Assembly (NCBI GenBank): GCA_017499595.2
Contig: CM039010.1
Span: 2,232,001-2,296,000 of the forward strand
Length of the DNA stretch: 64,000 bases
From: Psilocybe cubensis
Lineage: Eukaryota
Direction: 5' to 3'
This document shows, piece by piece, positions 37,407-61,110 of the stretch; within the stretch, counting starts at the first letter, position 1; every line of letters starts with the position of its first letter. The notes below the pieces were generated by a model. That model saw only the letters and a program-made list of their open reading frames with translations. It was not told the DNA's origin and made no database searches. Both the position numbers and the translations under genes were made by a program.

Positions 37407-37981
37407 AGAAGGAATGTTCTGGAACATCCGATGACAGCGCGTGAAGTGATGCTGCGCAGCTGTCATGTATCTTACCGACTATCACAAATCTGTCAATGTT
37501 TATTGTCAAGTTAGACAGGTCTCTGATGAACAGAGTGTCACGGGTCAATGTGGCACATGGTAACCTGTCAAAAGTGGATCCAACACTTTTGTTCTTTGAC
37601 ATCGTGGGTTATTGACTGTGATGTGAATCACATGGATATAGATTACTCTGGTTACGTGGCTCCGAGTAACCGCGACATGGGAATATTCACATGTCTAGAG
37701 TATAAATAGCTTACCTGGGTCCTTACCTAACAATCAAAAAATAGAATGATTGATTGTTGTGAATCTTAATTGGACAATTCATGATCCGGTCCATCAAAAA
37801 TGTTTCCACGGTACTAAGGAACTTTTCCCGAAGTACTAAGTAACTTTTCCCATGTACTAAATTAGATCCGGCCCTTCACAATCACATGCCGTTCGGAAGT
37901 TCACACGCCTACCTTATTTCCTACTAAGGTTAGACTTAGTTAGCTTAGGGTTGGGGTTAGGTTAGGGCTTAGGGTTTAGGG

Positions 37982-38050
37982 GGGGAGCGAGCACCGAGCG
38001 AAGCGAGGTGCGAGCGACTAATTTAAACTGTGAGTTAAATGGAAAGTAGC
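37982..38050 (-). mobile_element. 69-bp terminal fragment of the element
   Basis: GGGGAGCGAGCACC...GGAAAGTAGC, then TTTAGGG repeats. Confidence 0.9.
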
Positions 38051-38278: not shown

Positions 38279-38988
38279 AGAAGGAATGTTCTAGACATCC
38301 GATGACAGCGCGTGAAGTGATGCTGCGCAGCTGTCATGTATCTTACCGACTATCACAAATCTGTCAATGTTTATTGTCAAGTTAGACAGGTCTCTGATGA
38401 ACAGAGTGTCACGGGTCGATGTGGCACATGGTAACCTGTCAAAAGTGGATCCAACACTTTTGTTCTTTGACATCGTGGGTTATTGACTGTGATGTGAATC
38501 ACATGGATATAGATTACTCTGGTTACGTGGCTCCGAGTAACCGCGACATGGGAATATTCACATGTCTAGAGTATAAATAACTTACCTGGGTCCTTACCTA
38601 ACAATCAAACAATAGAATGATTGATTGTTGTGAATCTTAATTGGACAGTTCATGATCCGGTCCATCAAAAATGTTTCCACGGTACTAAGGAACTTTTCCC
38701 GAAGTACTAAGTAACTTTTCCCATGTACTAAATTAGATCCGGCCCTTCACAATCACATGCCGTTCGGAAGTTCACACGCCTACCTTACTTCCTACTAAGG
38801 TTAGACTTAGTTAGCTTAGGGTTGGGGTTAGGTTAGGGTTTAGGGTTTAGGGTTTAGGGTTTAGGTTTAGGTTTAGCTATTCAATCCAATGTGTTGCTTG
38901 TAAGTAGATGTTTGTTACTTTATAGCAAGGAATACTTACGGTTAGGGTTTTTTTCTAATGCTTTACGCCTTAAGCGCTAGTATTCTTT

Positions 38989-41900
38989 TCATCGGTTGTA
39001 AGATTTGGATATTCTGCCAAATTCTGGATGTTCCCTCTCTTGTGAGATTGAACGTCTATGAAGTATTATCTCGTTATCACTTTCGATACTTATCTGCTCA
39101 GCAGCTTCAACTAAAGCAGAATGATAAGTTTCATTAACGTTTTGAGTTTCGGGAACAACACCACCTTTTTCAGCGATGTCTTCATCCAGTTTACGAAAGA
39201 CTGTTTTCTTCCACACATTTGCAAGGTCGAAAAGATTAGTATTGCGTTTTCGCGATACTATCCAACGACTTCCGAGTAGTCCTATCTTCCTCAAATCCGG
39301 TACGAACTCAGTTTCTCCGTCCACGAGGATCTGTGTGAACAGCTCCGGGCGAACATCATCGAGGTCGTGAACGTAATTTGGATCTGGTTTGATAAGGGGT
39401 CTGGACGAGTCTGCACTATACAAACCTTTCTCGGCATGTTCATACCATGCCGACCAGTACTCGGTAACAGTTTTTCCAAGTTCAGCAGCTGAAAACCAAT
39501 TCCATACCTGATCAAATCTGGTTTTAAGTACAAGAATGGATTCGTCGTGCTCTGCGACTCGTAAAGCGAATCGCTTTTCCCAACGTTCTTGTATATTCTT
39601 CTTACACCAAGATATGACTAGGTTTTCGGGATAACCGCGCATCAAATAGAGAGCGTTAAGGTCTCTAATTGCTCCGATGTAGATTTCCTTGGTACTACAT
39701 AGCACGGCTAACCTGGATAACTCTCCAATGTAGACGCCACGTTTGACGTCCAAAGGATGATGTGATACCCATGGAACTCGTTCTCGGTTGTTTCCTGTCT
39801 TGACAAAAGGCTTCCAATGAAGTTTTCCAGACTCCTTGAATATGAAAGCATCGAGAAATTGACATCCCGACGAGGAAACAGCCCATTCGATAACACAACC
39901 ATCGAACTTTATTGTTTCTTTAATAAGATTAAGTGCAAGTGCTTCGGACTCGGCGTAAACAATTGCGAAACAATCGTCGATGTACCTTCCATAGAAGGCC
40001 ACGTTTGGGTGGTCTAAGATTTTTGACTTTATTTCAAAATGGGCTCCAAAGAGGTTAGCAAGGTCCGGAGAATCCGCGACGCCCATTGCGAGGCCATTTT
40101 TTTGTCTAAAATATCTAGACCCATGTTGTGTTATCAATTGCGTATTGCCAATCTCGATAGCACGTTTAAAGATGCCCAATTTAACCAAGTTATTCTCTAA
40201 CGAATTTGGATTAATATGGGCTAATGCAGTGTTTTCTTCCGAAGCGTTGAGTAACCATTCCTCGTACATACTACAAACGATTTCGATGCACAAGTCCAAC
40301 GGAATATTGGGATAGAAAGCAACTACATCTCCAGTGACAAAATACCATTGTCTTTTGGAGTCTATACGCAATTGGCTTAATCTCGTAAAGAGATCCTTCG
40401 TTCCGTGTATGATTGAAGGAGTCGATTTAATAATCGGCTTAAGCTCTTTTGATACAAACTTGGCTGCAGGATTAAATACTACAGAGTGACACGGAATTAT
40501 GGGCCTAAATCCAGTAGGTTTCTTGTGGATTTTAGGTATACCATGAAATTGAGGATACTTGAACGATGATCCGTCTTCCGGTACATTCGATAGAAAGAAT
40601 CGAGACAACCCAAGTTCAAATAGAAACAGATGTTCATCTTCGACAGTACGTGCGAGCGTTTGCATCTGAATCATTTTGCTCTTCATAACTTCTTGCGCAA
40701 CTTCGAATTCTAACTCTTCGTAATTACGTTCATCTTCAAGAAGATTGAGCTCATTCCTTAATATCCAGTCGCGTTCAGACACCGCGAGGCCAAGATTCTT
40801 ATCTGTCATCGTAATAACATAGTTGTTATCGATAAGAAACTTACGGATCTTGTCCCTTTTAGGAGAGAACGCGTGCTTTCGCATCTCCGTAAGGGCTTCT
40901 TCCGGGATACTTGCGATCGTGCGTTGCACGTACCGACGTCCCATCGAAAGGCCAAGTTCCATATATTGCGGTAATACAGGAGGTTTCTCTTTCTTTTTTG
41001 AGCTTACTCCATAATCTGGATCAAAAGGTTTATTCATGCCTTCCTTAAACAAAAAATAGATACGCCATCTTATTCTTCGTTGGAAATCATTCCATGCTTG
41101 CATGATCAGACTTTTAGAAGGCAGAGTGAAAAACATATAATTAAGTCCGAGAGAGAGATCGTTTGCTACATCAACAGGGACAGAAACACCAGGACTACAA
41201 TGTACACTACTACGATACTGGCCAGCCAACAAGAATGATATTGGAGTATGTAAGTGTACGAAAGAAACTGCGTCTGTTTTAGTCATGGTGAGTATATCGT
41301 CAGGAATAGAGTTGGGGAAGGCGGGTCTCACCGACGTAAAAGGTACTACATTAGACCGCGCATCTAGGCTCTTGCCTTTCCCTTTCCCTTTGGATCGTTC
41401 TTGACGGGAGCTCTCCCCTTCCCTTTCTTCTTGTTGTCGACCTTGTTGGAAGCCTTGGTTTGAGGCTTGCGTTGCGAAGGCGTCGACGACGACTTGGGTT
41501 TCGAAGGGCCAGCTTTCTTGGCCTGAGGTTGAGGAGCCTTGGACGAATTCTGGCCAGACAAAGTCTGGGTAATTAGAGTAGTAATTAGTATCCAGAATTA
41601 TGGGTGAAGGGTTACGAAAACTTGCCTTCTTGCCCACAGATCCAAGGTTGAGCTTCTTGAGACGTGCATTCAAGCCCTTATCAATAAGGGATTGAATCGA
41701 CGGACCTGGTTTGGTCGCGTCGGCCATCTCGACATCGGCTGTTGCCGCAGTCGTCCGCTTTTTCTCAATCTTAATTGCCAAAGCGCGGTGGCGCATGTTG
41801 ACAATTTGTTTGATGTGAGAAAAGATCGCCGGCAGTATGGTTTGCAGCGCACTGCATTCGGCTTTCTTTTGCGGAGACACTACCCACTCTGCTATACGTC

Positions 41901-42519
41901 GAACTCCCTTGTTATCTGTAGAGAAAACAGGGAGCTTGTAGCTGGATTTGCGATCATCGTAAGTTGCCTTAACGATGAGGGCAGCAGCTTCGTAGCAAGA
42001 GTTGAGTGCGCATTTATCATCCCAAAAAGTCAGCTCGTCCTTTTTCGCCTGAATGGCGCCGTCGTTAATTGCCTTTTGGAAGGCGTCACGAGCGGTAGAG
42101 AACGTAGTGGAGACTCGAAGAGCCTCCGCTGACCCGGCATCCGCGAATTCCTTCGTAAGTTGGAACTCGGGTGCCTTCACCTTAAGGCGATTGGGCGTGT
42201 TGCCTGCGCTAACGGCAGATTCAAGGCGCTCGAGGCTAGCCTTGACTGTTTCCCTCTTATCGCACCACGATGCGAGGTTGAGGAGAAACTCCCTAAGGGC
42301 AGCACGATAGTCAAAAAAGACGCAGTCTATGACTTGGTCAACGGAGCGGCACTCAGCTATTTTTTTGATGACCACAGTGGCCAGCTCGTCGATCAGAGCG
42401 TTATGGCGGCCTGCTTCATCGTTGACGCCGAAAACGGTGTTGTTGACGACGGCCTGGGTGAGTGCGTCCAGGGTGGGGGACATGGCACGAGAGAAAGCAG
42501 CAGAGTATTGAGATGACAT
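38989..42519 (-). CDS. Penelope-like RT polyprotein, 1176 aa (candidate intron 41565-41625)
   Basis: Same RT motifs as copy 1. Confidence 0.93.
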   Translation of the reverse strand: MSSQYSAAFSRAMSPTLDALTQAVVNNTVFGVNDEAGRHNALIDELATVVIKKIAECRSVDQVIDCVFFDYRAALREFLLNLASWCDKRETVKASLERLESAVSAGNTPNRLKVKAPEFQLTKEFADAGSAEALRVSTTFSTARDAFQKAINDGAIQAKKDELTFWDDKCALNSCYEAAALIVKATYDDRKSSYKLPVFSTDNKGVRRIAEWVVSPQKKAECSALQTILPAIFSHIKQIVNMRHRALAIKIEKKRTTAATADVEMADATKPGPSIQSLIDKGLNARLKKLNLGSVGKKASFRNPSPIILDTNYYSNYPDFVWPEFVQGSSTSGQESWPFETQVVVDAFATQASNQGFQQGRQQEEREGESSRQERSKGKGKGKSLDARSNVVPFTSVRPAFPNSIPDDILTMTKTDAVSFVHLHTPISFLLAGQYRSSVHCSPGVSVPVDVANDLSLGLNYMFFTLPSKSLIMQAWNDFQRRIRWRIYFLFKEGMNKPFDPDYGVSSKKKEKPPVLPQYMELGLSMGRRYVQRTIASIPEEALTEMRKHAFSPKRDKIRKFLIDNNYVITMTDKNLGLAVSERDWILRNELNLLEDERNYEELEFEVAQEVMKSKMIQMQTLARTVEDEHLFLFELGLSRFFLSNVPEDGSSFKYPQFHGIPKIHKKPTGFRPIIPCHSVVFNPAAKFVSKELKPIIKSTPSIIHGTKDLFTRLSQLRIDSKRQWYFVTGDVVAFYPNIPLDLCIEIVCSMYEEWLLNASEENTALAHINPNSLENNLVKLGIFKRAIEIGNTQLITQHGSRYFRQKNGLAMGVADSPDLANLFGAHFEIKSKILDHPNVAFYGRYIDDCFAIVYAESEALALNLIKETIKFDGCVIEWAVSSSGCQFLDAFIFKESGKLHWKPFVKTGNNRERVPWVSHHPLDVKRGVYIGELSRLAVLCSTKEIYIGAIRDLNALYLMRGYPENLVISWCKKNIQERWEKRFALRVAEHDESILVLKTRFDQVWNWFSAAELGKTVTEYWSAWYEHAEKGLYSADSSRPLIKPDPNYVHDLDDVRPELFTQILVDGETEFVPDLRKIGLLGSRWIVSRKRNTNLFDLANVWKKTVFRKLDEDIAEKGGVVPETQNVNETYHSALVEAAEQISIESDNEIILHRRSISQEREHPEFGRISKSYNR

Positions 42520-42619
42520 AGTGGCTGATGGATAATAGCAAAGTCGTTGGGTTTAGGGGGGGAGCGAGCACCGAGCGAAGCGAGGTGCGAGCGACTAGTT
42601 TAAACTGGGAGTTAAATGG

Positions 42620-42695
42620 AAAGTAGCCAGAGGGCTGTTGGGGGATCCCAACAACCAGCCCTTTCGTCTTTATAGACTCTTCAGTGGCTATTCTT
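42620..42695 (-). ncRNA. Type I hammerhead ribozyme
   Basis: Same as 38203-38278; cleavage 42630/42629. Confidence 0.9.
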
Positions 42696-43356
42696 AGAAG
42701 GAATGTTCTAGACATCCGATGACAGCGCGTGAAGTGATGCTGCGCAGCTGTCATGTATCTTACCGACTATCACAAATCTGTCAATGTTTATTGTCAAGTT
42801 AGACAGGTCTCTGATGAACAGAGTGTCACGGGTCGATGTGGCACATGGTAACCTGTCAAAAGTGGATCCAACACTTTTGTTCTTTGACATCGTGGGTTAT
42901 TGACTGTGATGTGAATCACATGGATATAGATTACTCTGGTTACGTGGCTCCGAGTAACCGCGACATGGGAATATTCACATGTCTAGAGTATAAATAACTT
43001 ACCTGGGTCCTTACCTAACAATCAAACAATAGAATGATTGATTGTTGTGAATCTTAATTGGACAGTTCATGATCCGGTCCATCAAAAATGTTTCCACGGT
43101 ACTAAGGAACTTTTCCCGAAGTACTAAGTAACTTTTCCCATGTACTAAATTAGATCCGGCCCTTCACAATCACATGCCGTTCGGAAGTTCACACGCCTAC
43201 CTTACTTCCTACTAAGGTTAGACTTAGTTAGCTTAGGGTTGGGGTTAGGTTAGGGTTTAGGGTTTAGGGTTTAGGGTTTAGGTTTAGGTTTAGGGGGGGA
43301 GCGAGCACCGAGCGAAGCGAGGTGCGAGCGACTAGTTTAAACTGGGAGTTAAATGG

Positions 43357-43432
43357 AAAGTAGCCAGAGGGCTGTTGGGGGATCCCAACAACCAGCCCTT
43401 TCGTCTTTATAGACTCTTCAGTGGCTATTCTT
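43357..43432 (-). ncRNA. Type I hammerhead ribozyme
   Basis: Same core and stems. Confidence 0.9.
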
Positions 43433-44142
43433 AGAAGGAATGTTCTAGACATCCGATGACAGCGCGTGAAGTGATGCTGCGCAGCTGTCATGTATCTTAC
43501 CGACTATCACAAATCTGTCAATGTTTATTGTCAAGTTAGACAGGTCTCTGATGAACAGAGTGTCACGGGTCGATGTGGCACATGGTAACCTGTCAAAAGT
43601 GGATCCAACACTTTTGTTCTTTGACATCGTGGGTTATTGACTGTGATGTGAATCACATGGATATAGATTACTCTGGTTACGTGGCTCCGAGTAACCGCGA
43701 CATGGGAATATTCACATGTCTAGAGTATAAATAACTTACCTGGGTCCTTACCTAACAATCAAACAATAGAATGATTGATTGTTGTGAATCTTAATTGGAC
43801 AGTTCATGATCCGGTCCATCAAAAATGTTTCCACGGTACTAAGGAACTTTTCCCGAAGTACTAAGTAACTTTTCCCATGTACTAAATTAGATCCGGCCCT
43901 TCACAATCACATGCCGTTCGGAAGTTCACACGCCTACCTTACTTCCTACTAAGGTTAGACTTAGTTAGCTTAGGGTTGGGGTTAGGTTAGGGTTTAGGGT
44001 TTAGGGTTTAGGGTTTAGGTTTAGGTTTAGCTATTCAATCCAATGTGTTGCTTGTAAGTAGATGTTTGTTACTTTATAGCAAGGAATACTTACGGTTAGG
44101 GTTTTTTTCTAATGCTTTACGCCTTAAGCGCTAGTATTCTTT

Positions 44143-47100
44143 TCATCGGTTGTAAGATTTGGATATTCTGCCAAATTCTGGATGTTCCCTCTCTTGTGAG
44201 ATTGAACGTCTATGAAGTATTATCTCGTTATCACTTTCGATACTTATCTGCTCAGCAGCTTCAACTAAAGCAGAATGATAAGTTTCATTAACGTTTTGAG
44301 TTTCGGGAACAACACCACCTTTTTCAGCGATGTCTTCATCCAGTTTACGAAAGACTGTTTTCTTCCACACATTTGCAAGGTCGAAAAGATTAGTATTGCG
44401 TTTTCGCGATACTATCCAACGACTTCCGAGTAGTCCTATCTTCCTCAAATCCGGTACGAACTCAGTTTCTCCGTCCACGAGGATCTGTGTGAACAGCTCC
44501 GGGCGAACATCATCGAGGTCGTGAACGTAATTTGGATCTGGTTTGATAAGGGGTCTGGACGAGTCTGCACTATACAAACCTTTCTCGGCATGTTCATACC
44601 ATGCCGACCAGTACTCGGTAACAGTTTTTCCAAGTTCAGCAGCTGAAAACCAATTCCATACCTGATCAAATCTGGTTTTAAGTACAAGAATGGATTCGTC
44701 GTGCTCTGCGACTCGTAAAGCGAATCGCTTTTCCCAACGTTCTTGTATATTCTTCTTACACCAAGATATGACTAGGTTTTCGGGATAACCGCGCATCAAA
44801 TAGAGAGCGTTAAGGTCTCTAATTGCTCCGATGTAGATTTCCTTGGTACTACATAGCACGGCTAACCTGGATAACTCTCCAATGTAGACGCCACGTTTGA
44901 CGTCCAAAGGATGATGTGATACCCATGGAACTCGTTCTCGGTTGTTTCCTGTCTTGACAAAAGGCTTCCAATGAAGTTTTCCAGACTCCTTGAATATGAA
45001 AGCATCGAGAAATTGACATCCCGACGAGGAAACAGCCCATTCGATAACACAACCATCGAACTTTATTGTTTCTTTAATAAGATTAAGTGCAAGTGCTTCG
45101 GACTCGGCGTAAACAATTGCGAAACAATCGTCGATGTACCTTCCATAGAAGGCCACGTTTGGGTGGTCTAAGATTTTTGACTTTATTTCAAAATGGGCTC
45201 CAAAGAGGTTAGCAAGGTCCGGAGAATCCGCGACGCCCATTGCGAGGCCATTTTTTTGTCTAAAATATCTAGACCCATGTTGTGTTATCAATTGCGTATT
45301 GCCAATCTCGATAGCACGTTTAAAGATGCCCAATTTAACCAAGTTATTCTCTAACGAATTTGGATTAATATGGGCTAATGCAGTGTTTTCTTCCGAAGCG
45401 TTGAGTAACCATTCCTCGTACATACTACAAACGATTTCGATGCACAAGTCCAACGGAATATTGGGATAGAAAGCAACTACATCTCCAGTGACAAAATACC
45501 ATTGTCTTTTGGAGTCTATACGCAATTGGCTTAATCTCGTAAAGAGATCCTTCGTTCCGTGTATGATTGAAGGAGTCGATTTAATAATCGGCTTAAGCTC
45601 TTTTGATACAAACTTGGCTGCAGGATTAAATACTACAGAGTGACACGGAATTATGGGCCTAAATCCAGTAGGTTTCTTGTGGATTTTAGGTATACCATGA
45701 AATTGAGGATACTTGAACGATGATCCGTCTTCCGGTACATTCGATAGAAAGAATCGAGACAACCCAAGTTCAAATAGAAACAGATGTTCATCTTCGACAG
45801 TACGTGCGAGCGTTTGCATCTGAATCATTTTGCTCTTCATAACTTCTTGCGCAACTTCGAATTCTAACTCTTCGTAATTACGTTCATCTTCAAGAAGATT
45901 GAGCTCATTCCTTAATATCCAGTCGCGTTCAGACACCGCGAGGCCAAGATTCTTATCTGTCATCGTAATAACATAGTTGTTATCGATAAGAAACTTACGG
46001 ATCTTGTCCCTTTTAGGAGAGAACGCGTGCTTTCGCATCTCCGTAAGGGCTTCTTCCGGGATACTTGCGATCGTGCGTTGCACGTACCGACGTCCCATCG
46101 AAAGGCCAAGTTCCATATATTGCGGTAATACAGGAGGTTTCTCTTTCTTTTTTGAGCTTACTCCATAATCTGGATCAAAAGGTTTATTCATGCCTTCCTT
46201 AAACAAAAAATAGATACGCCATCTTATTCTTCGTTGGAAATCATTCCATGCTTGCATGATCAGACTTTTAGAAGGCAGAGTGAAAAACATATAATTAAGT
46301 CCGAGAGAGAGATCGTTTGCTACATCAACAGGGACAGAAACACCAGGACTACAATGTACACTACTACGATACTGGCCAGCCAACAAGAATGATATTGGAG
46401 TATGTAAGTGTACGAAAGAAACTGCGTCTGTTTTAGTCATGGTGAGTATATCGTCAGGAATAGAGTTGGGGAAGGCGGGTCTCACCGACGTAAAAGGTAC
46501 TACATTAGACCGCGCATCTAGGCTCTTGCCTTTCCCTTTCCCTTTGGATCGTTCTTGACGGGAGCTCTCCCCTTCCCTTTCTTCTTGTTGTCGACCTTGT
46601 TGGAAGCCTTGGTTTGAGGCTTGCGTTGCGAAGGCGTCGACGACGACTTGGGTTTCGAAGGGCCAGCTTTCTTGGCCTGAGGTTGAGGAGCCTTGGACGA
46701 ATTCTGGCCAGACAAAGTCTGGGTAATTAGAGTAGTAATTAGTATCCAGAATTATGGGTGAAGGGTTACGAAAACTTGCCTTCTTGCCCACAGATCCAAG
46801 GTTGAGCTTCTTGAGACGTGCATTCAAGCCCTTATCAATAAGGGATTGAATCGACGGACCTGGTTTGGTCGCGTCGGCCATCTCGACATCGGCTGTTGCC
46901 GCAGTCGTCCGCTTTTTCTCAATCTTAATTGCCAAAGCGCGGTGGCGCATGTTGACAATTTGTTTGATGTGAGAAAAGATCGCCGGCAGTATGGTTTGCA
47001 GCGCACTGCATTCGGCTTTCTTTTGCGGAGACACTACCCACTCTGCTATACGTCGAACTCCCTTGTTATCTGTAGAGAAAACAGGGAGCTTGTAGCTGGA

Positions 47101-47673
47101 TTTGCGATCATCGTAAGTTGCCTTAACGATGAGGGCAGCAGCTTCGTAGCAAGAGTTGAGTGCGCATTTATCATCCCAAAAAGTCAGCTCGTCCTTTTTC
47201 GCCTGAATGGCGCCGTCGTTAATTGCCTTTTGGAAGGCGTCACGAGCGGTAGAGAACGTAGTGGAGACTCGAAGAGCCTCCGCTGACCCGGCATCCGCGA
47301 ATTCCTTCGTAAGTTGGAACTCGGGTGCCTTCACCTTAAGGCGATTGGGCGTGTTGCCTGCGCTAACGGCAGATTCAAGGCGCTCGAGGCTAGCCTTGAC
47401 TGTTTCCCTCTTATCGCACCACGATGCGAGGTTGAGGAGAAACTCCCTAAGGGCAGCACGATAGTCAAAAAAGACGCAGTCTATGACTTGGTCAACGGAG
47501 CGGCACTCAGCTATTTTTTTGATGACCACAGTGGCCAGCTCGTCGATCAGAGCGTTATGGCGGCCTGCTTCATCGTTGACGCCGAAAACGGTGTTGTTGA
47601 CGACGGCCTGGGTGAGTGCGTCCAGGGTGGGGGACATGGCACGAGAGAAAGCAGCAGAGTATTGAGATGACAT
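44143..47673 (-). CDS. Penelope-like RT polyprotein, 1176 aa (candidate intron 46719-46779)
   Basis: Translation appears identical to copy 2. Confidence 0.93.
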   Translation of the reverse strand: MSSQYSAAFSRAMSPTLDALTQAVVNNTVFGVNDEAGRHNALIDELATVVIKKIAECRSVDQVIDCVFFDYRAALREFLLNLASWCDKRETVKASLERLESAVSAGNTPNRLKVKAPEFQLTKEFADAGSAEALRVSTTFSTARDAFQKAINDGAIQAKKDELTFWDDKCALNSCYEAAALIVKATYDDRKSSYKLPVFSTDNKGVRRIAEWVVSPQKKAECSALQTILPAIFSHIKQIVNMRHRALAIKIEKKRTTAATADVEMADATKPGPSIQSLIDKGLNARLKKLNLGSVGKKASFRNPSPIILDTNYYSNYPDFVWPEFVQGSSTSGQESWPFETQVVVDAFATQASNQGFQQGRQQEEREGESSRQERSKGKGKGKSLDARSNVVPFTSVRPAFPNSIPDDILTMTKTDAVSFVHLHTPISFLLAGQYRSSVHCSPGVSVPVDVANDLSLGLNYMFFTLPSKSLIMQAWNDFQRRIRWRIYFLFKEGMNKPFDPDYGVSSKKKEKPPVLPQYMELGLSMGRRYVQRTIASIPEEALTEMRKHAFSPKRDKIRKFLIDNNYVITMTDKNLGLAVSERDWILRNELNLLEDERNYEELEFEVAQEVMKSKMIQMQTLARTVEDEHLFLFELGLSRFFLSNVPEDGSSFKYPQFHGIPKIHKKPTGFRPIIPCHSVVFNPAAKFVSKELKPIIKSTPSIIHGTKDLFTRLSQLRIDSKRQWYFVTGDVVAFYPNIPLDLCIEIVCSMYEEWLLNASEENTALAHINPNSLENNLVKLGIFKRAIEIGNTQLITQHGSRYFRQKNGLAMGVADSPDLANLFGAHFEIKSKILDHPNVAFYGRYIDDCFAIVYAESEALALNLIKETIKFDGCVIEWAVSSSGCQFLDAFIFKESGKLHWKPFVKTGNNRERVPWVSHHPLDVKRGVYIGELSRLAVLCSTKEIYIGAIRDLNALYLMRGYPENLVISWCKKNIQERWEKRFALRVAEHDESILVLKTRFDQVWNWFSAAELGKTVTEYWSAWYEHAEKGLYSADSSRPLIKPDPNYVHDLDDVRPELFTQILVDGETEFVPDLRKIGLLGSRWIVSRKRNTNLFDLANVWKKTVFRKLDEDIAEKGGVVPETQNVNETYHSALVEAAEQISIESDNEIILHRRSISQEREHPEFGRISKSYNR

Positions 47674-47773
47674 AGTGGCTGATGGATAATAGCAAAGTCG
47701 TTGGGTTTAGGGGGGGAGCGAGCACCGAGCGAAGCGAGGTGCGAGCGACTAGTTTAAACTGGGAGTTAAATGG

Positions 47774-47849
47774 AAAGTAGCCAGAGGGCTGTTGGGGGAT
47801 CCCAACAACCAGCCCTTTCGTCTTTATAGACTCTTCAGTGGCTATTCTT
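47774..47849 (-). ncRNA. Type I hammerhead ribozyme
   Basis: Same core and stems. Confidence 0.9.
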
Positions 47850-48510
47850 AGAAGGAATGTTCTAGACATCCGATGACAGCGCGTGAAGTGATGCTGCGCA
47901 GCTGTCATGTATCTTACCGACTATCACAAATCTGTCAATGTTTATTGTCAAGTTAGACAGGTCTCTGATGAACAGAGTGTCACGGGTCGATGTGGCACAT
48001 GGTAACCTGTCAAAAGTGGATCCAACACTTTTGTTCTTTGACATCGTGGGTTATTGACTGTGATGTGAATCACATGGATATAGATTACTCTGGTTACGTG
48101 GCTCCGAGTAACCGCGACATGGGAATATTCACATGTCTAGAGTATAAATAACTTACCTGGGTCCTTACCTAACAATCAAACAATAGAATGATTGATTGTT
48201 GTGAATCTTAATTGGACAGTTCATGATCCGGTCCATCAAAAATGTTTCCACGGTACTAAGGAACTTTTCCCGAAGTACTAAGTAACTTTTCCCATGTACT
48301 AAATTAGATCCGGCCCTTCACAATCACATGCCGTTCGGAAGTTCACACGCCTACCTTACTTCCTACTAAGGTTAGACTTAGTTAGCTTAGGGTTGGGGTT
48401 AGGTTAGGGTTTAGGGTTTAGGGTTTAGGGTTTAGGTTTAGGTTTAGGGGGGGAGCGAGCACCGAGCGAAGCGAGGTGCGAGCGACTAGTTTAAACTGGG
48501 AGTTAAATGG

Positions 48511-48586
48511 AAAGTAGCCAGAGGGCTGTTGGGGGATCCCAACAACCAGCCCTTTCGTCTTTATAGACTCTTCAGTGGCTATTCTT
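48511..48586 (-). ncRNA. Type I hammerhead ribozyme
   Basis: Same core and stems. Confidence 0.9.
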
Positions 48587-49296
48587 AGAAGGAATGTTCT
48601 AGACATCCGATGACAGCGCGTGAAGTGATGCTGCGCAGCTGTCATGTATCTTACCGACTATCACAAATCTGTCAATGTTTATTGTCAAGTTAGACAGGTC
48701 TCTGATGAACAGAGTGTCACGGGTCGATGTGGCACATGGTAACCTGTCAAAAGTGGATCCAACACTTTTGTTCTTTGACATCGTGGGTTATTGACTGTGA
48801 TGTGAATCACATGGATATAGATTACTCTGGTTACGTGGCTCCGAGTAACCGCGACATGGGAATATTCACATGTCTAGAGTATAAATAACTTACCTGGGTC
48901 CTTACCTAACAATCAAACAATAGAATGATTGATTGTTGTGAATCTTAATTGGACAGTTCATGATCCGGTCCATCAAAAATGTTTCCACGGTACTAAGGAA
49001 CTTTTCCCGAAGTACTAAGTAACTTTTCCCATGTACTAAATTAGATCCGGCCCTTCACAATCACATGCCGTTCGGAAGTTCACACGCCTACCTTACTTCC
49101 TACTAAGGTTAGACTTAGTTAGCTTAGGGTTGGGGTTAGGTTAGGGTTTAGGGTTTAGGGTTTAGGGTTTAGGTTTAGGTTTAGCTATTCAATCCAATGT
49201 GTTGCTTGTAAGTAGATGTTTGTTACTTTATAGCAAGGAATACTTACGGTTAGGGTTTTTTTCTAATGCTTTACGCCTTAAGCGCTAGTATTCTTT

Positions 49297-52200
49297 TCAT
49301 CGGTTGTAAGATTTGGATATTCTGCCAAATTCTGGATGTTCCCTCTCTTGTGAGATTGAACGTCTATGAAGTATTATCTCGTTATCACTTTCGATACTTA
49401 TCTGCTCAGCAGCTTCAACTAAAGCAGAATGATAAGTTTCATTAACGTTTTGAGTTTCGGGAACAACACCACCTTTTTCAGCGATGTCTTCATCCAGTTT
49501 ACGAAAGACTGTTTTCTTCCACACATTTGCAAGGTCGAAAAGATTAGTATTGCGTTTTCGCGATACTATCCAACGACTTCCGAGTAGTCCTATCTTCCTC
49601 AAATCCGGTACGAACTCAGTTTCTCCGTCCACGAGGATCTGTGTGAACAGCTCCGGGCGAACATCATCGAGGTCGTGAACGTAATTTGGATCTGGTTTGA
49701 TAAGGGGTCTGGACGAGTCTGCACTATACAAACCTTTCTCGGCATGTTCATACCATGCCGACCAGTACTCGGTAACAGTTTTTCCAAGTTCAGCAGCTGA
49801 AAACCAATTCCATACCTGATCAAATCTGGTTTTAAGTACAAGAATGGATTCGTCGTGCTCTGCGACTCGTAAAGCGAATCGCTTTTCCCAACGTTCTTGT
49901 ATATTCTTCTTACACCAAGATATGACTAGGTTTTCGGGATAACCGCGCATCAAATAGAGAGCGTTAAGGTCTCTAATTGCTCCGATGTAGATTTCCTTGG
50001 TACTACATAGCACGGCTAACCTGGATAACTCTCCAATGTAGACGCCACGTTTGACGTCCAAAGGATGATGTGATACCCATGGAACTCGTTCTCGGTTGTT
50101 TCCTGTCTTGACAAAAGGCTTCCAATGAAGTTTTCCAGACTCCTTGAATATGAAAGCATCGAGAAATTGACATCCCGACGAGGAAACAGCCCATTCGATA
50201 ACACAACCATCGAACTTTATTGTTTCTTTAATAAGATTAAGTGCAAGTGCTTCGGACTCGGCGTAAACAATTGCGAAACAATCGTCGATGTACCTTCCAT
50301 AGAAGGCCACGTTTGGGTGGTCTAAGATTTTTGACTTTATTTCAAAATGGGCTCCAAAGAGGTTAGCAAGGTCCGGAGAATCCGCGACGCCCATTGCGAG
50401 GCCATTTTTTTGTCTAAAATATCTAGACCCATGTTGTGTTATCAATTGCGTATTGCCAATCTCGATAGCACGTTTAAAGATGCCCAATTTAACCAAGTTA
50501 TTCTCTAACGAATTTGGATTAATATGGGCTAATGCAGTGTTTTCTTCCGAAGCGTTGAGTAACCATTCCTCGTACATACTACAAACGATTTCGATGCACA
50601 AGTCCAACGGAATATTGGGATAGAAAGCAACTACATCTCCAGTGACAAAATACCATTGTCTTTTGGAGTCTATACGCAATTGGCTTAATCTCGTAAAGAG
50701 ATCCTTCGTTCCGTGTATGATTGAAGGAGTCGATTTAATAATCGGCTTAAGCTCTTTTGATACAAACTTGGCTGCAGGATTAAATACTACAGAGTGACAC
50801 GGAATTATGGGCCTAAATCCAGTAGGTTTCTTGTGGATTTTAGGTATACCATGAAATTGAGGATACTTGAACGATGATCCGTCTTCCGGTACATTCGATA
50901 GAAAGAATCGAGACAACCCAAGTTCAAATAGAAACAGATGTTCATCTTCGACAGTACGTGCGAGCGTTTGCATCTGAATCATTTTGCTCTTCATAACTTC
51001 TTGCGCAACTTCGAATTCTAACTCTTCGTAATTACGTTCATCTTCAAGAAGATTGAGCTCATTCCTTAATATCCAGTCGCGTTCAGACACCGCGAGGCCA
51101 AGATTCTTATCTGTCATCGTAATAACATAGTTGTTATCGATAAGAAACTTACGGATCTTGTCCCTTTTAGGAGAGAACGCGTGCTTTCGCATCTCCGTAA
51201 GGGCTTCTTCCGGGATACTTGCGATCGTGCGTTGCACGTACCGACGTCCCATCGAAAGGCCAAGTTCCATATATTGCGGTAATACAGGAGGTTTCTCTTT
51301 CTTTTTTGAGCTTACTCCATAATCTGGATCAAAAGGTTTATTCATGCCTTCCTTAAACAAAAAATAGATACGCCATCTTATTCTTCGTTGGAAATCATTC
51401 CATGCTTGCATGATCAGACTTTTAGAAGGCAGAGTGAAAAACATATAATTAAGTCCGAGAGAGAGATCGTTTGCTACATCAACAGGGACAGAAACACCAG
51501 GACTACAATGTACACTACTACGATACTGGCCAGCCAACAAGAATGATATTGGAGTATGTAAGTGTACGAAAGAAACTGCGTCTGTTTTAGTCATGGTGAG
51601 TATATCGTCAGGAATAGAGTTGGGGAAGGCGGGTCTCACCGACGTAAAAGGTACTACATTAGACCGCGCATCTAGGCTCTTGCCTTTCCCTTTCCCTTTG
51701 GATCGTTCTTGACGGGAGCTCTCCCCTTCCCTTTCTTCTTGTTGTCGACCTTGTTGGAAGCCTTGGTTTGAGGCTTGCGTTGCGAAGGCGTCGACGACGA
51801 CTTGGGTTTCGAAGGGCCAGCTTTCTTGGCCTGAGGTTGAGGAGCCTTGGATGAATTCTGGCCAGACAAAGTCTGGGTAATTAGAGTAGTAATTAGTATC
51901 CAGAATTATGGGTGAAGGGTTACGAAAACTTGCCTTCTTGCCCACAGATCCAAGGTTGAGCTTCTTGAGACGTGCATTCAAGCCCTTATCAATAAGGGAT
52001 TGAATCGACGGACCTGGTTTGGTCGCGTCGGCCATCTCGACATCGGCTGTTGCCGCAGTCGTCCGCTTTTTCTCAATCTTAATTGCCAAAGCGCGGTGGC
52101 GCATGTTGACAATTTGTTTGATGTGAGAAAAGATCGCCGGCAGTATGGTTTGCAGCGCACTGCATTCGGCTTTCTTTTGCGGAGACACTACCCACTCTGC

Positions 52201-52827
52201 TATACGTCGAACTCCCTTGTTATCTGTAGAGAAAACAGGGAGCTTGTAGCTGGATTTGCGATCATCGTAAGTTGCCTTAACGATGAGGGCAGCAGCTTCG
52301 TAGCAAGAGTTGAGTGCGCATTTATCATCCCAAAAAGTCAGCTCGTCCTTTTTCGCCTGAATGGCGCCGTCGTTAATTGCCTTTTGGAAGGCGTCACGAG
52401 CGGTAGAGAACGTAGTGGAGACTCGAAGAGCCTCCGCTGACCCGGCATTCGCGAATTCCTTCGTAAGTTGGAACTCGGGTGCCTTCACCTTAAGGCGATT
52501 GGGCGTGTTGCCTGCGCTAACGGCAGATTCAAGGCGCTCGAGGCTAGCCTTGACTGTTTCCCTCTTATCGCACCACGATGCGAGGTTGAGGAGAAACTCC
52601 CTAAGGGCAGCACGATAGTCAAAAAAGACGCAGTCTATGACTTGGTCAACGGAGCGGCACTCAGCTATTTTTTTGATGACCACAGTGGCCAGCTCGTCGA
52701 TCAGAGCGTTATGGCGGCCTGCTTCATCGTTGACGCCGAAAACGGTGTTGTTGACGACGGCCTGGGTGAGTGCGTCCAGGGTGGGGGACATGGCACGAGA
52801 GAAAGCAGCAGAGTATTGAGATGACAT
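49297..52827 (-). CDS. Penelope-like RT polyprotein, 1176 aa (candidate intron 51873-51933)
   Basis: Two aa differences noticed versus copies 2 and 3 (FADAG to FANAG, EFVQ to EFIQ). Confidence 0.93.
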   Translation of the reverse strand: MSSQYSAAFSRAMSPTLDALTQAVVNNTVFGVNDEAGRHNALIDELATVVIKKIAECRSVDQVIDCVFFDYRAALREFLLNLASWCDKRETVKASLERLESAVSAGNTPNRLKVKAPEFQLTKEFANAGSAEALRVSTTFSTARDAFQKAINDGAIQAKKDELTFWDDKCALNSCYEAAALIVKATYDDRKSSYKLPVFSTDNKGVRRIAEWVVSPQKKAECSALQTILPAIFSHIKQIVNMRHRALAIKIEKKRTTAATADVEMADATKPGPSIQSLIDKGLNARLKKLNLGSVGKKASFRNPSPIILDTNYYSNYPDFVWPEFIQGSSTSGQESWPFETQVVVDAFATQASNQGFQQGRQQEEREGESSRQERSKGKGKGKSLDARSNVVPFTSVRPAFPNSIPDDILTMTKTDAVSFVHLHTPISFLLAGQYRSSVHCSPGVSVPVDVANDLSLGLNYMFFTLPSKSLIMQAWNDFQRRIRWRIYFLFKEGMNKPFDPDYGVSSKKKEKPPVLPQYMELGLSMGRRYVQRTIASIPEEALTEMRKHAFSPKRDKIRKFLIDNNYVITMTDKNLGLAVSERDWILRNELNLLEDERNYEELEFEVAQEVMKSKMIQMQTLARTVEDEHLFLFELGLSRFFLSNVPEDGSSFKYPQFHGIPKIHKKPTGFRPIIPCHSVVFNPAAKFVSKELKPIIKSTPSIIHGTKDLFTRLSQLRIDSKRQWYFVTGDVVAFYPNIPLDLCIEIVCSMYEEWLLNASEENTALAHINPNSLENNLVKLGIFKRAIEIGNTQLITQHGSRYFRQKNGLAMGVADSPDLANLFGAHFEIKSKILDHPNVAFYGRYIDDCFAIVYAESEALALNLIKETIKFDGCVIEWAVSSSGCQFLDAFIFKESGKLHWKPFVKTGNNRERVPWVSHHPLDVKRGVYIGELSRLAVLCSTKEIYIGAIRDLNALYLMRGYPENLVISWCKKNIQERWEKRFALRVAEHDESILVLKTRFDQVWNWFSAAELGKTVTEYWSAWYEHAEKGLYSADSSRPLIKPDPNYVHDLDDVRPELFTQILVDGETEFVPDLRKIGLLGSRWIVSRKRNTNLFDLANVWKKTVFRKLDEDIAEKGGVVPETQNVNETYHSALVEAAEQISIESDNEIILHRRSISQEREHPEFGRISKSYNR

Positions 52828-52938
52828 AGTGGCTGATGGATAATAGCAAAGTCGTTGGGTTTAGGGGGGGAGCGAGCACCGAGCGAAGCGAGGTGCGAGC
52901 GACTAGTTTAAACTGGGAGTTAAATGGAAAGTAGCCAG

Positions 52939-53422
52939 CGGCTCGTGATTTTTTACGGGCGTGGACCAGTGCAAGCAATGGGCGCTACCGTACAGGCAAA
53001 CGATCACTACATACCGCTCATGACAAAAGAGCAGGCTATTGCCTATTAAGTCCTTTACCAAGGGACACTCTCATGCCATTGGACATGGCAGGCTAATACC
53101 CTTTAAGCCCTTTACCAAGGGGCGCCACATCAGCCATTACAGCCACAGGTTCATTTCCGGCGACGAACTATTTGTCCATCCTTGTGTTAACTCCCTTTAC
53201 TAAGGGGAGGCCGGGTCACCCGCGTTTTAAGCGGTTCTGGACTTCGGGCCGTCCTCGTAAGCAGCGAGGCGCGGTTTAGATACCAGATGTGGGTTTCCCC
53301 ACTCCCAAGACTATATCTTAAGATCCGAAGACCCCACTACCACCTAGTCGTTGAACGCTTCCGTCGGCGTGACCGTTACGGATTCGCTGCTGATTATCCA
53401 TTCCAGCTTTCGCTGAATCTTG
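52939..53422. other. Unique foreign hairpin-rich insert of unknown origin
   Basis: No match seen elsewhere in the window; bounded by the element 5' end and a telomeric tract. Confidence 0.8.
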
Positions 53423-53460
53423 GGGTTTAGGGTTTAGGGTTTAGGGTTTAGGGTTTAGGG
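53423..53460 (+). repeat. Interstitial TTTAGGG tract
   Basis: About 5 units. Confidence 0.95.
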
Positions 53461-53524
53461 GGGGAGCGAGCACCGAGCGAAGCGAGGTGCGAGCGACTAG
53501 TTTAAACTGTGAGTTTGAAATAGA

Positions 53525-53600
53525 AAGAAGGCCAGAGGGCTGTTGGGGGATCCCAACAACCAGCCCTTTCGTCTTTATAGACTCTTCAGTGGCTATTCTT
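53525..53600 (-). ncRNA. Type I hammerhead ribozyme
   Basis: Same core; cleavage 53535/53534. Confidence 0.88.
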
Positions 53601-54304
53601 AGAAGGAATGTTCTAGACATCCGATGACAGCGCGTGAAGTGATGCTGCGCAGCTGTCATGTATCTTACCGACTATCACAAATCTGTCAATGTTTATTGTC
53701 AAGTTAGACAGGTCTCTGATGAACAGAGTGTCACGGGTCGATGTGGCACATGGTAACCTGTCAAAAGTGGATCCAACACTTTTGTTCTTTGACATCGTGG
53801 GTTATTGACTGTGATGTGAATCACATGGATATAGATTACTCTGGTTACGTGGCTCCGAGTAACCGCGACATGGGAATATTCACATGTCTAGAGTATAAAT
53901 AGCTTACCTGGGTCCTTACCTAACAATCAAACAATAGAATGATTGATTGTTGTGAATCTTAATTGGACAGTTCATGATCCGGTCCATCAAAAATGTTTCC
54001 ACGGTACTAAGGAACTTTTCCCGAAGTACTAAGTAACTTTTCCCATGTACTAAATTAGATCCGGCCCTTCACAATCACATGCCGTTCGGAAGTTCACACG
54101 CCTACCTTACTTCCTACTAAGGTTAGACTTAGTTAGCTTAGGGTTGGGGTTAGGTTAGGGTTTAGGGTTTAGGGTTTAGGGTTTAGGTTTAGCTATTTAA
54201 TCCAAAGTGTTGCTTGTAAGTAGATGTTTGTTACTTTATAGCAAGGAATACTTACGGTTAGGGTTTTTTTCTAATGCTTTACGCCTTACGCGCTAGTATT
54301 CTTT

Positions 54305-58609: not shown

Positions 58610-58662
58610 GGTTAGGGTTTTTTTTTTTTTAGGGTTTAGGGTTTAGGGTTTAGGGTTTAGGG
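58610..58662 (+). repeat. Telomeric tract containing a T13 run
   Basis: GGGTTAGGG-T13-AGGG(TTTAGGG)n. Confidence 0.9.
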
Positions 58663-58800: not shown

Positions 58801-59503
58801 AGAAGGAATGTTCTGGAACATCCGATGACAGCGCGTGAAGTGATGCTGCGCAGCTGTCATGTATCTTACCGACTATCACAAATCTGTCAATGTTTATTGT
58901 CAAGTTAGACAGATCTCTGATGAACAGAGTGTCACGGGTCGATGTGGCACATGGTAACCTGTCAAAAGTGGATCCAACACTTTTGTTCTTTGACATCGTG
59001 GGTTATTGACTGTGATGTGAATCACATGGATATAAAATACTCTGGTTACGTGGCTCCGAGTAACCGTGACATGGGAATATTCTCATGTCAAGAGTATAAA
59101 TAGCTTACCTGGGTCCTTACCTAACAATCAATTGATTGATTGTTGTGAATCTTAATTGGACAGTTCATGATCCGGTCCATCAAAAATGTTTCCACGGTAC
59201 TAAGGAACTTTTCCCGAGGTACTAAGTAACTTTTCCCATGTACTAAATTAGATCCGGCCCTTCACAATCACATGCCTTTCGGAAGTTCACACGCCTACCT
59301 TACTTCCTACTAAGGTTAGACTTAGTTAACTTAGGGTTGGGGTTAGGTTAGGGCTTAGGGTTTAGGGTTTAGGGTTTAGGTTTAGGTTTAGCTATTTAAT
59401 CCAATGTGTTGCTTGTAAGTAGATGTTTGTTACTTTGTAGCAAGGAATACTTACGGTTAGGGTTTTTTTCTAATGCTTTACGCCTTACGCGCTAGTATTC
59501 TTT

Positions 59504-61110
59504 TCATCGGTTGTAAGATTTGGATATTCTGCCGAATTCTGGATGTTCCCTCTCTTGTGAGATTGAACGTCTATGAAGTATTATCTCGTTATCACTTTCG
59601 ATACTTATCTGTTCAGCAGCTTCAACTAAAGCAGAATGATAAGTTTCATTAACGTTTTGAGTTTCGGGAACAACACCACCTTTTTCAGCGATGTCTTCAT
59701 CCAGTTTACGAAAGACTGTTTTCTTCCACACATTTGCAAGGTCGAAAAGATTAGTATTGCGTTTTCGCGATACTATCCAACGACTTCCGAGTAGTCCTAT
59801 CTTCCTCAAATCCGGTACGAACTCAGTTTCTCCGTCCACGAGGATCTGTGTGAACAGCTCCGGGCGAACATCATCGAGGTCGTGAACGTAATTTGGATCT
59901 GGTTTGATAAGGGGTCTGGACGAGTCTGCACTATACAAACCTTTCTCGGCATGTTCATACCATGCCGACCAGTACTCGGTAACAGTTTTTCCAAGTTCAG
60001 CAGCTGAAAACCAATTCCATACCTGATCAAATCTGGTTTTAAGTACAAGAATGGATTCGTCGTGCTCTGCGACTCGTAAAGCGAATCGCTTTTCCCAACG
60101 TTCTTGTATATTCTTCTTACACCAAGACATGACTAGGTTTTCGGGATAACCGCGCATCAAATAGAGAGCGTTAAGGTCTCTAATTGCTCCGATGTAGATT
60201 TCCTTGGTACTACATAGCACGGCTAACCTGGATAACTCTCCAATGTAGACGCCACGTTTGACGTCCAAAGGATGATGTGATACCCATGGAACTCGTTCTC
60301 GGTTGTTTCCTGTCTTGACAAATGGCTTCCAATGAAGTTTTCCAGACTCCTTGAATATGAAAGCATCGAGAAATTGACATCCCGACGAGGAAACAGCCCA
60401 TTCGATAACACAACCATCGAACTTTATTGTTTCTTTAATAAGATTAAGTGCAAGTGCTTCGGACTCGGCGTAAACAATTGCGAAACAATCGTCGATGTAC
60501 CTTCCATAGAAGGCCACGTTTGGGTGGTCTAAGATTTTTGACTTTATTTCAAAATGGGCTCCAAAGAGGTTAGCAAGGTCCGGAGAATCCGCGACGCCCA
60601 TTGCGAGGCCATTTTTTTGTCTAAAATATCTAGACCCATGTTGTGTTATCAATTGCGTATTGCCAATCTCGATAGCACGTTTAAAGATGCCCAATTTAAC
60701 AAAGTTATTCTCTAACGAATTTGGATTAATATGGGCTAATGCAGTGTTTTCTTCCGAAGCGTTGAGTAACCATTCCTCGTACATATTACAAACGATTTCG
60801 ATGCACAAGTCCAACGGAATATTGGGATAGAAAGCAACTACATCCCCGGTGACAAAATACCATTGTCGTTTGGGGTCTATACGCAATTGGCTTAATCTCG
60901 TAAAGAGATCCTTCGTTCCGTGAATGATTGAAGGAGTCGATTTAATAATCGGCTTAAGCTCTTTTGATACAAACTTGGCTGCAGGATTAAATACTACAGA
61001 GTGACACGGAATTATGGGCCTAAATCCAGTAGGTTTTTTGTGGATTTTAGGTATACCATGAAATTGAGGATACTTGAACGATGATCCGTCTTCCGGTACA
61101 TTCGATAGAA
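59504..61110 (-). pseudogene. 5'-truncated RT coding fragment
   Basis: Lacks the ORF1 region and the native start codon. Confidence 0.85.

Follow-up and report, generated by a model that had tools for sequence, protein, structure and literature searches.

How did a 484-bp sequence with no counterpart in its surroundings come to lie at the border of one repeat unit in a telomeric retroelement array? The locus that raises this question is a 64,000-nucleotide stretch of Psilocybe cubensis DNA (contig CM039010.1, positions 2,232,001 to 2,296,000, of assembly GCA_017499595.2), referred to here as the window, which contains Coprina-type elements arranged head to tail on a telomere cap with their sense on the minus strand. 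The sequence in question occupies positions 52939–53422 of the window, beside the 74-nt tail of one of these elements, and an earlier note made from the sequence alone had proposed that the element's reverse transcriptase (RT) jumped there onto the 3′ end of another RNA, be it from a mycovirus, another retroelement or a host noncoding RNA. We found that this piece, read on the minus strand, is a cDNA copy of a group I ribozyme that lacks its 5′ part, with 348 nt of structured RNA behind it (assigned with Rfam RF00028 and by its fold), and that its sequence is homologous to a region found upstream of the RT ORF in distantly related Coprina-like elements.

A truncated group I ribozyme followed by a structured stretch

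When we searched the piece against the whole window by BLASTN we found only itself and matches of 29 nt or less (E-values of 0.31 or more), bearing out the view in the earlier note that these 484 bp are unique in the window. An Rfam scan, which that note had recommended, gave a match on the minus strand to the group I intron model RF00028 (Intron_gpI; 45.9 bits, E-value 1.3e-10) that covered the first 136 nt of the piece (53287–53422, P5–P9), spanned model positions 71–253 of 253 and was flagged as cut at its 5′ end; the gathering score of the model is 50 bits, and a relative in a metagenome contig (L001, see below) scored 57 over positions 1–253. With GUUCAACGACUA...AAGAUAUAGUCU aligned to the model, the core helices P4–P6, P7, P8 and P9 could be placed together with the P7/J8-7 sequence, and in comparisons with L001 and a second relative, L004, P7 was invariant and P9 carried two compensatory pairs. 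The catalytic core is not complete in the window copy, which retains the 3′ two-thirds of the ribozyme, starts in P5 and is without P1–P3 and the 5′ strand of P4; since the partners of P3 and P4 are missing, this copy is dead and cannot be active as a ribozyme.

The hairpin GTGGGTTTCCCCAC (as read on the plus strand), which the earlier note had singled out together with TGCCATTGGACATGGCA, proved to be P9, and the second is likewise present, lying between the two modules described below. The minus strand had also been read as the possible tail of an open reading frame (ORF; ...DSAKAGMDNQQRIRNGHADGSVQRLGGSGVFGS and a stop); this frame exists but is not coding, translating P5–P8 within the ribozyme core, and its 34 stop-free codons are unremarkable. 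Folded as RNA, the minus strand of the piece reached −176 kcal/mol (z = −3.16, with none of 100 shuffles as good) and the plus strand −153.9 kcal/mol (z = −1.84). The G+C content of the piece is ~51% (0.51 reported for the ribozyme core).

The 348 nt after P9 include a UGUAAUG-loop hairpin and a 50-nt module that occurs twice, in addition to a solo hairpin of this module's kind and a fourth, degenerate copy; a predicted long-range helix (piece positions 188–194 with 404–410) closes most of this stretch. Each module is a three-way junction made up of a closing stem, hairpin A (GYCCCUURGUAAAGGRC), UUAAA and hairpin B, in which four base pairs close an ANUA loop. A covariance model built from eight copies (R1) scored the two window modules on the minus strand, w2 (53082–53131) and w1 (53025–53074), at 67.7 and 65.7 bits, respectively, and matched the solo hairpin (CUCCCCUUAGUAAAGGGAG; 53191–53209, minus strand) in part (model positions 10–24, 16.9 bits); it found no further full module copy in the window. 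The three related hairpins that the earlier note had noticed are thus all present, two of them being hairpin A of the modules, while the third, the solo hairpin, matches hairpin A only.

The eight copies, two from the window, three from L001, two from L004 and one from a third relative, L013, align without gaps; individual copies precede the ribozyme, lie within P6 or fall in the 5′ untranslated region (5′UTR). In this alignment 94.1% of the cells are paired, compared with 35–56% in slid controls, and compensatory changes occur in 9 of the 17 pairs; the covariation score of 0.511, against 0.181 for shuffles, was reached by none of 500 shuffles. Matches of R1 in L003–L016 were not counted, because those loci had been picked by the 19-mer of the module. 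The UGUAAUG hairpin (53132–53144, minus strand) precedes the module in all four sequences (window, L001, L004 and L013), which have the loop in common and differ in the stems that close it, three different stems that nevertheless all pair. This hairpin (L001 2140–2156, minus strand; L013 1178–1194) resembles the first 15 positions of the Fungi_SRP model, a match of 11.2 bits (E-value 2.2) that we took as chance, as we did a match to MEG3_2 (E-value 7.1) in the piece.

Relatives of the piece in metagenome contigs

Searching metagenome contigs for a 19-letter motif of the module gave 13 loci on 12 contigs. Nine of these contigs were set aside, the common sequence being only 19–25 nt, and in three contigs of one metagenome (L001/L002, L004 and L013) 36–39 nt matched at 92–94% identity. 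L001, L004 and L013 each have an ORF homologous to the window RT from residue 7–8 on (tblastn E-values 3e-37 to 1e-27, ~25% identity), including the MTDKNLG motif. In L001 the RF00028 ribozyme is complete, has the orientation of the ORF and precedes the ATG by ~540 nt. L004 (91% identical to L001) has this ribozyme too, cut by the contig end (39.6 bits), and L013, which is 86–87% identical to L001 and L004, is without the ribozyme, its homology starting ~59 nt after P9. We found no rRNA at the L001, L004 and L013 loci and no telomere repeats in the sequence examined. In L013 (1–1053) the element copy adjoins an apparent, unrelated host gene with three short introns instead of telomere repeats, and because of this neighbor the relatives may not be strictly telomeric.

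Ribozyme, UGUAAUG hairpin and module follow one another in identical order in the window piece and the metagenome contigs, and from P7 to ~60 nt past P9 the window and L001/L004 are invariant at 85 of 167 columns. The likeness extends to the 74-nt tail of the window element, which has a hairpin whose loop is identical to the 11-nt loop (CUCGCUUCGCU) of a hairpin in the 5′UTR of L001/L004, ~50–65 nt before the ATG. This 5′UTR hairpin, 40 nt long and G+C-rich, is an insertion at L001 1855–1895 and at the same place in L004, and is absent from L013. We relied on anchored comparisons because MAFFT misaligned the cores, and the whole-leader MAFFT alignment (A2) was discarded. A search with profile A1 yielded no further relatives in viral_contigs (164 pattern hits, 0 confirmed) or genome_contigs (41 pattern hits, 0 confirmed), and a search with the L004 ORF found only 4 longer proteins, all of them unnamed.

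There are two candidate 3′ boundaries for the ribozyme. One would be CUUAAAACG, a motif 66 nt after P9 (53223–53231, minus strand) that aligns with GGUAAAA(U/C)G of L001/L004 where the L013 copy begins; a CCGNUUAAAAYGCG motif common to the window and L001/L004 lies at this point, and the UUAAAACG motif, homologous to the L013 start, marks it as a candidate end. The other candidate is the final G of the piece at 52939, which the predicted long-range helix around most of the stretch after P9 supports. For the L001-type ribozyme, a candidate cut region lies near GGUAAAAUG/CGC (the slash marking the cut).

Junctions of the piece and the hammerhead of the regular units

BLAST against two reference pieces shows the array to consist of an ORF unit of 3685 bp and a second unit, R, of 738 bp. 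Read in the sense direction (minus strand), R starts with telomere-like repeats and ends with a hammerhead, a 74-nt tail and a C7 run, after which UAAACCC repeats follow. The 3′ ends of ORF units adjoin the start of R in 8 of 8 cases, with no variable telomere tract between them, and the 5′ ends of the complete ORF units are followed in 5 of 5 cases by exactly GGGTTTA, a G7 run and the tail. Because these borders are constant, we take R to be the 3′-terminal region of the element, which in tandem also stands upstream of the next ORF in the manner of a pseudo-long-terminal-repeat.

The hammerhead is present in all 12 full copies of R, in five sequence variants that all keep the core. As criteria for a hammerhead we used the core CUGANGA ... 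GAAA, three helices and cleavage after NUH; by reading, the ribozyme is of type I with the core GCCA-CUGAAGA-GUC..GAC-GAAA-GGGCUG..CAGCCC-UC/UGGC (slash at the predicted cut), a GUC/GAC helix II, a 7+5-bp helix III and an open helix I of 4–6 bp, and lies 74 nt from the element's 3′ end. Across the variants 89.5% of the cells are paired, and three distal pairs of helix III have compensatory changes. In the reference copy of a regular R unit (48515–48581, minus strand) cleavage is predicted between 48521 and 48520, that is, after C17, which would leave an RNA starting UGGCUAC with a 5′-OH.

The chimeric unit (49185–52937) is identical to its neighbors in the ORF unit, GGGTTTA and the 74-nt tail, and leaves R at 52939. 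Its ORF unit (49185–52856, minus strand) holds an ORF of 1176 aa (49297–52827) that encodes an RT with the DKNLG and YIDD motifs; next come the single telomere unit GGGTTTA (52857–52863, plus strand), constant in 5 of 5 complete units, and the tail of the resident element (52864–52937, minus strand), which runs from the first base after the hammerhead cut (UGGCUAC...) to the C7 run. The neighboring type-1 tails agree with that of the chimeric copy at 74 of 74 positions whereas other R variants in the array diverge in the tail, which argues that the join is recent.

The left junction of the piece, at 52939, is 1 nt past the predicted hammerhead cut, which falls between plus-strand positions 52937 and 52938. 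The base in between, 52938 (G on the plus strand, C on the minus strand), equals C17 of the hammerhead in regular copies; it may be where the donor ended, may have been added without a template or may be common to both sequences. The piece ends in G immediately before this junction, and the microhomology at the junction (AGCC..C) is within chance, at ~10% by our own estimate. At its other end the truncated piece is capped by (GGGTTTA)5 (53423–53457, plus strand), beyond which come a G7 run and tail belonging to the next R unit (53458–54192). Neither end has a poly(A); the earlier note had described none at the junction, and was also right in taking the piece as foreign to the regular repeat, with its sense on the minus strand, and as telomere-capped at the cleavage-site junction. 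With its start within 1 nt of the hammerhead cut, its truncated sense-5′ end and its telomere cap, the piece has the pattern expected for cDNA run-off onto a second RNA. The identity and anatomy of the piece and the positions of both junctions are direct observations.

The only other broken copy of R is a solo tail (37979–38050, minus strand) that ends 2 nt short of the hammerhead cut and has telomere repeats directly after it. Relative to the predicted cut, the two copies thus stop at +1 and −2 nt; by our own arithmetic, two breaks placed at random in 738 nt would both come that close to a given site (2 nt or less) with odds of ~(5/738)^2 = 5e-5. Judging from where it ends, the solo tail appears to be a second footprint of a cleaved template. 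The array also includes two 5′-truncated, telomere-capped ORF copies (32691–32790 and 59392–61110), the mark of cDNA synthesis that was aborted while proceeding from left to right along the plus strand.

Origin of the piece

Taking these observations together, we hold with moderate confidence that a second RNA was copied onto the hammerhead-cut end of an element RNA, that copying stopped in the ribozyme and that the product was telomere-capped. An element RNA would be cut by its own hammerhead, leaving the 5′-OH end that starts UGGCUAC, and the element's RT would copy the cut RNA through to its end and then move onto a donor RNA from the donor's 3′ end by a template jump; alternatively, the two RNAs would have been ligated beforehand via the 5′-OH end. 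Synthesis would then halt in P5 of the group I ribozyme and five telomere repeats would be added, with R and ORF units joined farther out later. We infer such a run-off onto a second RNA because the position of the junction at the cut, the orientation, the truncated far end and the telomere cap all fit it, and a join at the RNA or cDNA level on the 5′-OH end left by the hammerhead, through RT template jump or RNA ligation, is the most likely one.

Since the relatives of the piece sit upstream of a homologous RT ORF in contigs without rRNA, we infer that the donor RNA probably bore a ribozyme and belonged to a related retroelement lineage of this genome, and was not viral. Among the three donors offered by the earlier note, another retroelement therefore fits best, the ribozyme, the UGUAAUG hairpin and the covarying module all being found upstream of the homologous ORF. 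The piece hints that some Coprina-type retroelements carry group I ribozymes.

A number of points weigh against this reading. The extra base at 52938 is unexplained by it, and the donor locus was not found in the metagenome contig scan. The 3′ end that the donor would have had (...GAGCCG, with or without C) is no recognized RNA end unless the 484 nt are one intron-like RNA ending in a terminal G, and a jump or break at an arbitrary internal point has to be assumed in addition. The metagenome elements have a leader of similar length that is colinear with ribozyme, structured stretch, tail and ORF taken together, a correspondence that would also fit a piece that had belonged to the element all along. 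The hammerhead scores under the Rfam gathering scores, at 25.3 bits against 56.3 for RAGATH-1-hammerhead and 19.5 against 48.5 for Hammerhead_3. For Poseidon PAc, the sole Penelope-like element (PLE) studied in vitro, unprocessed RNA is described as the dominant substrate, and the RNA-seq given in that account had no reads beginning or ending at the hammerhead site (PMC11167929). Finally, at least half of the piece's sampled words occur in nine sequencing runs, those of two other organisms (coded C and D) included, which shows that the sequence is conserved and is silent on the junction. Small word shares of 0.07–0.09 in ice and air metagenomes were given no meaning.

Alternative explanations

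The explanation that survives best beside a join between two RNAs, although we consider it unlikely, is that piece and tail together are a 5′-truncated copy of an older variant of R and that no jump took place in this copy. Ribozyme and modules would have replaced the body and hammerhead of R, with the telomere-priming tail kept, and the break at the hammerhead site would record an older exchange of modules. The colinearity of the upstream region with the metagenome elements (ribozyme, UGUAAUG hairpin, module and CUCGCUUCGCU-loop hairpin) speaks for it, as do the occurrence of the piece's words in several coded organisms and the position of the tail after a GGGTTTA unit and G7 run, exactly as in an ordinary R. 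In the same direction, ribozyme and ORF have stayed together in L001 as well as in L004, at 91% identity between the two, from which we conclude that the ribozyme is inherited as part of the element in their lineage. An old separate lineage should nonetheless have diverged, and the tail is identical to the type-1 neighbors at 74 of 74 positions; moreover, there is no second copy of such a variant among the 14 tails of the window, and a boundary between regions at the hammerhead cut would need another, unstated reason.

It is rather improbable, in our judgement, that the RT jumped to the 3′-terminal G of a free, excised group I intron RNA, from nuclear rDNA or elsewhere, with the 348 nt as its long peripheral extension. 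The free 3′-OH of an excised intron is the natural acceptor end for an end-to-end jump, and the piece has a G just before the junction; the predicted helix closing the stretch after P9 would make it one domain, like peripheral extensions, and the array adjoins rDNA. Yet the rDNA units of the window are all intron-free, the closest relatives adjoin RT ORFs in contigs free of rRNA, and the module is found in the 5′UTR of the ribozyme-less L013 as well. A nuclear rDNA intron interrupts an rRNA gene, and there is no rRNA beside the piece or in L001, L004 and L013; a mitochondrial source, set aside on base composition only, is unlikely because of the ~51% G+C.

We give little credence to an event at the DNA level (end joining, or recombination with another locus) or to an assembly mis-join of near-identical repeats. 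Three 5154-bp units of the array are 99.95–100% identical and hard to assemble, and the junction is known from assembled sequence alone; against this, the break and a predicted ribozyme cleavage site are no more than 1 nt apart, the piece is oriented as cDNA synthesis would have it, and its far end is truncated and telomere-capped like the two truncated ORF copies. An endogenized fragment of an RNA virus, which the earlier note had allowed for, has next to no probability: the stop-free 34-codon frame on the minus strand that could suggest it lies within the group I ribozyme core, the 19-mer scan of viral_contigs gave only 3 loci with matches of 20–21 nt and phage records gave none, and the relatives of the piece are retroelement leaders.

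The retroelement array and the chromosome end

Between 31.9 and 64 kb the minus strand holds five complete ORFs (1176–1177 aa), one that is 5′-truncated and one running off the window. The RT protein (P0001) has the MTDKNLG and YIDD motifs, T-D-K-N-L-G being invariant in 9 of 9 aligned homologs, and so has the N-terminal DKG/DKN motif of PLEs together with the RT catalytic motif, the combination expected of the Coprina clade. It has 326 homologs at E-values of 1e-3 or better, the best named ones being Psilocybe cubensis proteins with 99% identity. Searches with P0001 found no Pfam family at an E-value of 10 or better and no relative in the PDB, and a homolog 49% identical to it (P0064) passed the Pfam RVT_1 threshold (34.7 bits against a cut-off of 29.6). 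A GIY-YIG endonuclease domain was likewise not found in P0001 in Pfam or the PDB, a weak test since the RT domain was missed in the same way. The 3′ ends of all units face the rDNA on the centromere side, with attachment to the telomere via reverse-complement repeats. By its motifs, its telomeric position and the published description, the array matches endonuclease-less PLEs of the Coprina/Athena type.

The span 38877–52869 holds two 5154-bp units (ORF unit, R, R) plus one more ORF unit, with identities of 99.95–100% that extend to the telomere-like tracts in between. Such near-identity would point to very recent segmental duplication or to repeated copying of one template.

Toward the centromere the window holds three rDNA units on the plus strand (8294–31876), with SSU, 5.8S and LSU genes and with 5S within the spacers; by Rfam these units are intron-free (SSU 1807 nt, LSU 3400 nt). 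Within 28705–31966, the third LSU gene is the same as the second up to 31935, 169 nt before the LSU end, and TTTAGGG repeats follow directly. The chromosome end was thus healed inside a 28S gene by a TTTAGGG cap, and the retroelement array is built on top of it. The left edge of the rDNA (8548–8609) is inside an SSU gene, homology to the next unit beginning at 8606 (= 17581), ~270 nt into the SSU, and therefore only ~2.6 rDNA units lie between unique DNA and the telomere.

There are 66 matches to the telomere pattern in the window, 64 on the plus strand and 2 on the minus strand, both of the latter in rDNA spacer. From 31939 to the end of the window telomere repeats are on the plus strand only, so the chromosome end lies to the right. 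The unit is TTTAGGG throughout, e.g., at 53423–53457, in a genome with an RT protein that matches Psilocybe cubensis proteins at 99% identity; TTTAGGG is a 7-nt telomere unit familiar from plants. One telomere tract contains a run of 13 T (58618–58631; GGGTTTTTTTTTTTTTAGGG).

Relation to known systems

Coprina elements are described as attaching to telomeric overhangs, aided by reverse-complement telomere repeats and adjacent hammerhead motifs (PMC8557442), with Coprina-1_Alen in Ascochyta as a published example (PMC13159263). As in these accounts, the window elements encode just one ORF, an RT with a DKN-type motif in which we found no endonuclease domain, stand head to tail at a chromosome end with reverse-complement telomere repeats and a hammerhead near the element end, and include 5′-truncated copies with telomere repeats between them. 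The array itself is therefore of an already known kind. Unlike the elements described there, one window copy has a group I ribozyme fragment at its hammerhead-cut end, and distant metagenome relatives have a complete group I ribozyme upstream of the ORF. Within a limited library of full-text papers, our search turned up no group I ribozyme described from a PLE or any other retroelement. New, then, are the fusion at the hammerhead cut, the link of a group I ribozyme to this retroelement family and the conserved three-way-junction module.

Chimeric retrocopies formed at the 5′ end of a retroelement RNA have been described as U6/LINE-1 chimeras and as a tripartite pseudogene in Magnaporthe (PMC2104539, PMC4476161, PMC6789731), and RNA ligation before reverse transcription has been reported for U6/L1 chimeras (PMC6789731). 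The window case resembles U6/LINE-1 chimeras, as these sources present them, in that a retroelement copy would have another RNA joined to its 5′ end in matching orientation, for which template switching or prior ligation has been proposed. Compared with such chimeras point by point, the orientation and the retroelement-side end fit, and 52939 is the putative 3′ end of the donor RNA. Different from them are the acceptor end, which here would be made by a self-cleaving ribozyme and whose 5′-OH is of the kind that RNA ligases use, and the combination of a PLE-type RT, a telomeric product and a captured RNA that probably comes from a ribozyme-bearing retroelement instead of a small nuclear RNA.

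Self-cleaving ribozymes set the RNA ends of several retroelements. HDV-like ribozymes do so in R2 and other non-LTR elements. Hammerheads play this part in PLEs (PMC4209133), and twin-ribozyme introns have a lariat-capping, group I-like ribozyme (PMC4167309, PMC3679873). Like the PLE hammerheads and the lariat-capping ribozyme in these descriptions, the ribozyme of the metagenome elements lies just upstream of a coding RNA whose 5′ end it could make, and the start of L013, ~59 nt after the place of P9 in the L001 ribozyme, would fit such processing. Unlike small nucleolytic ribozymes, it scores as an ordinary group I core (RF00028), known from sequence alone. All known nuclear group I introns are described as interrupting rRNA genes (PMC3679873), whereas both the piece and the metagenome copies are without adjoining rRNA.

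Significance

The role of the hammerhead in PLEs is unsettled, with unprocessed RNA being used in the sole in vitro study (PMC11167929). Two genomic copies that stop at the predicted cut, one with a foreign sequence joined to it, would be natural footprints of hammerhead-cut RNA serving as a template with a recombining end. The 50-nt module is 92–94% conserved between elements whose proteins are only ~25% identical, its stems covary, and it might serve either to bind the element's protein or to assist folding.

Linkage between a group I ribozyme and an RT ORF is seen in two sources that are unrelated, the window and one metagenome, and makes a testable case of recruitment by a retroelement. 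Tentatively, and with the balance of our judgement still tilted against it, we consider a Coprina-like lineage in which a group I-derived ribozyme and the 50-nt module are integral to the terminal or leader region, where the ribozyme would cut or cap the RNA 5′ end in place of the hammerhead, the window holding a relic in a Psilocybe-like genome that recombined at the hammerhead cut. If true, an integral group I ribozyme in a Coprina-like lineage would be the first of the group I type in a eukaryotic nucleus outside rRNA genes.

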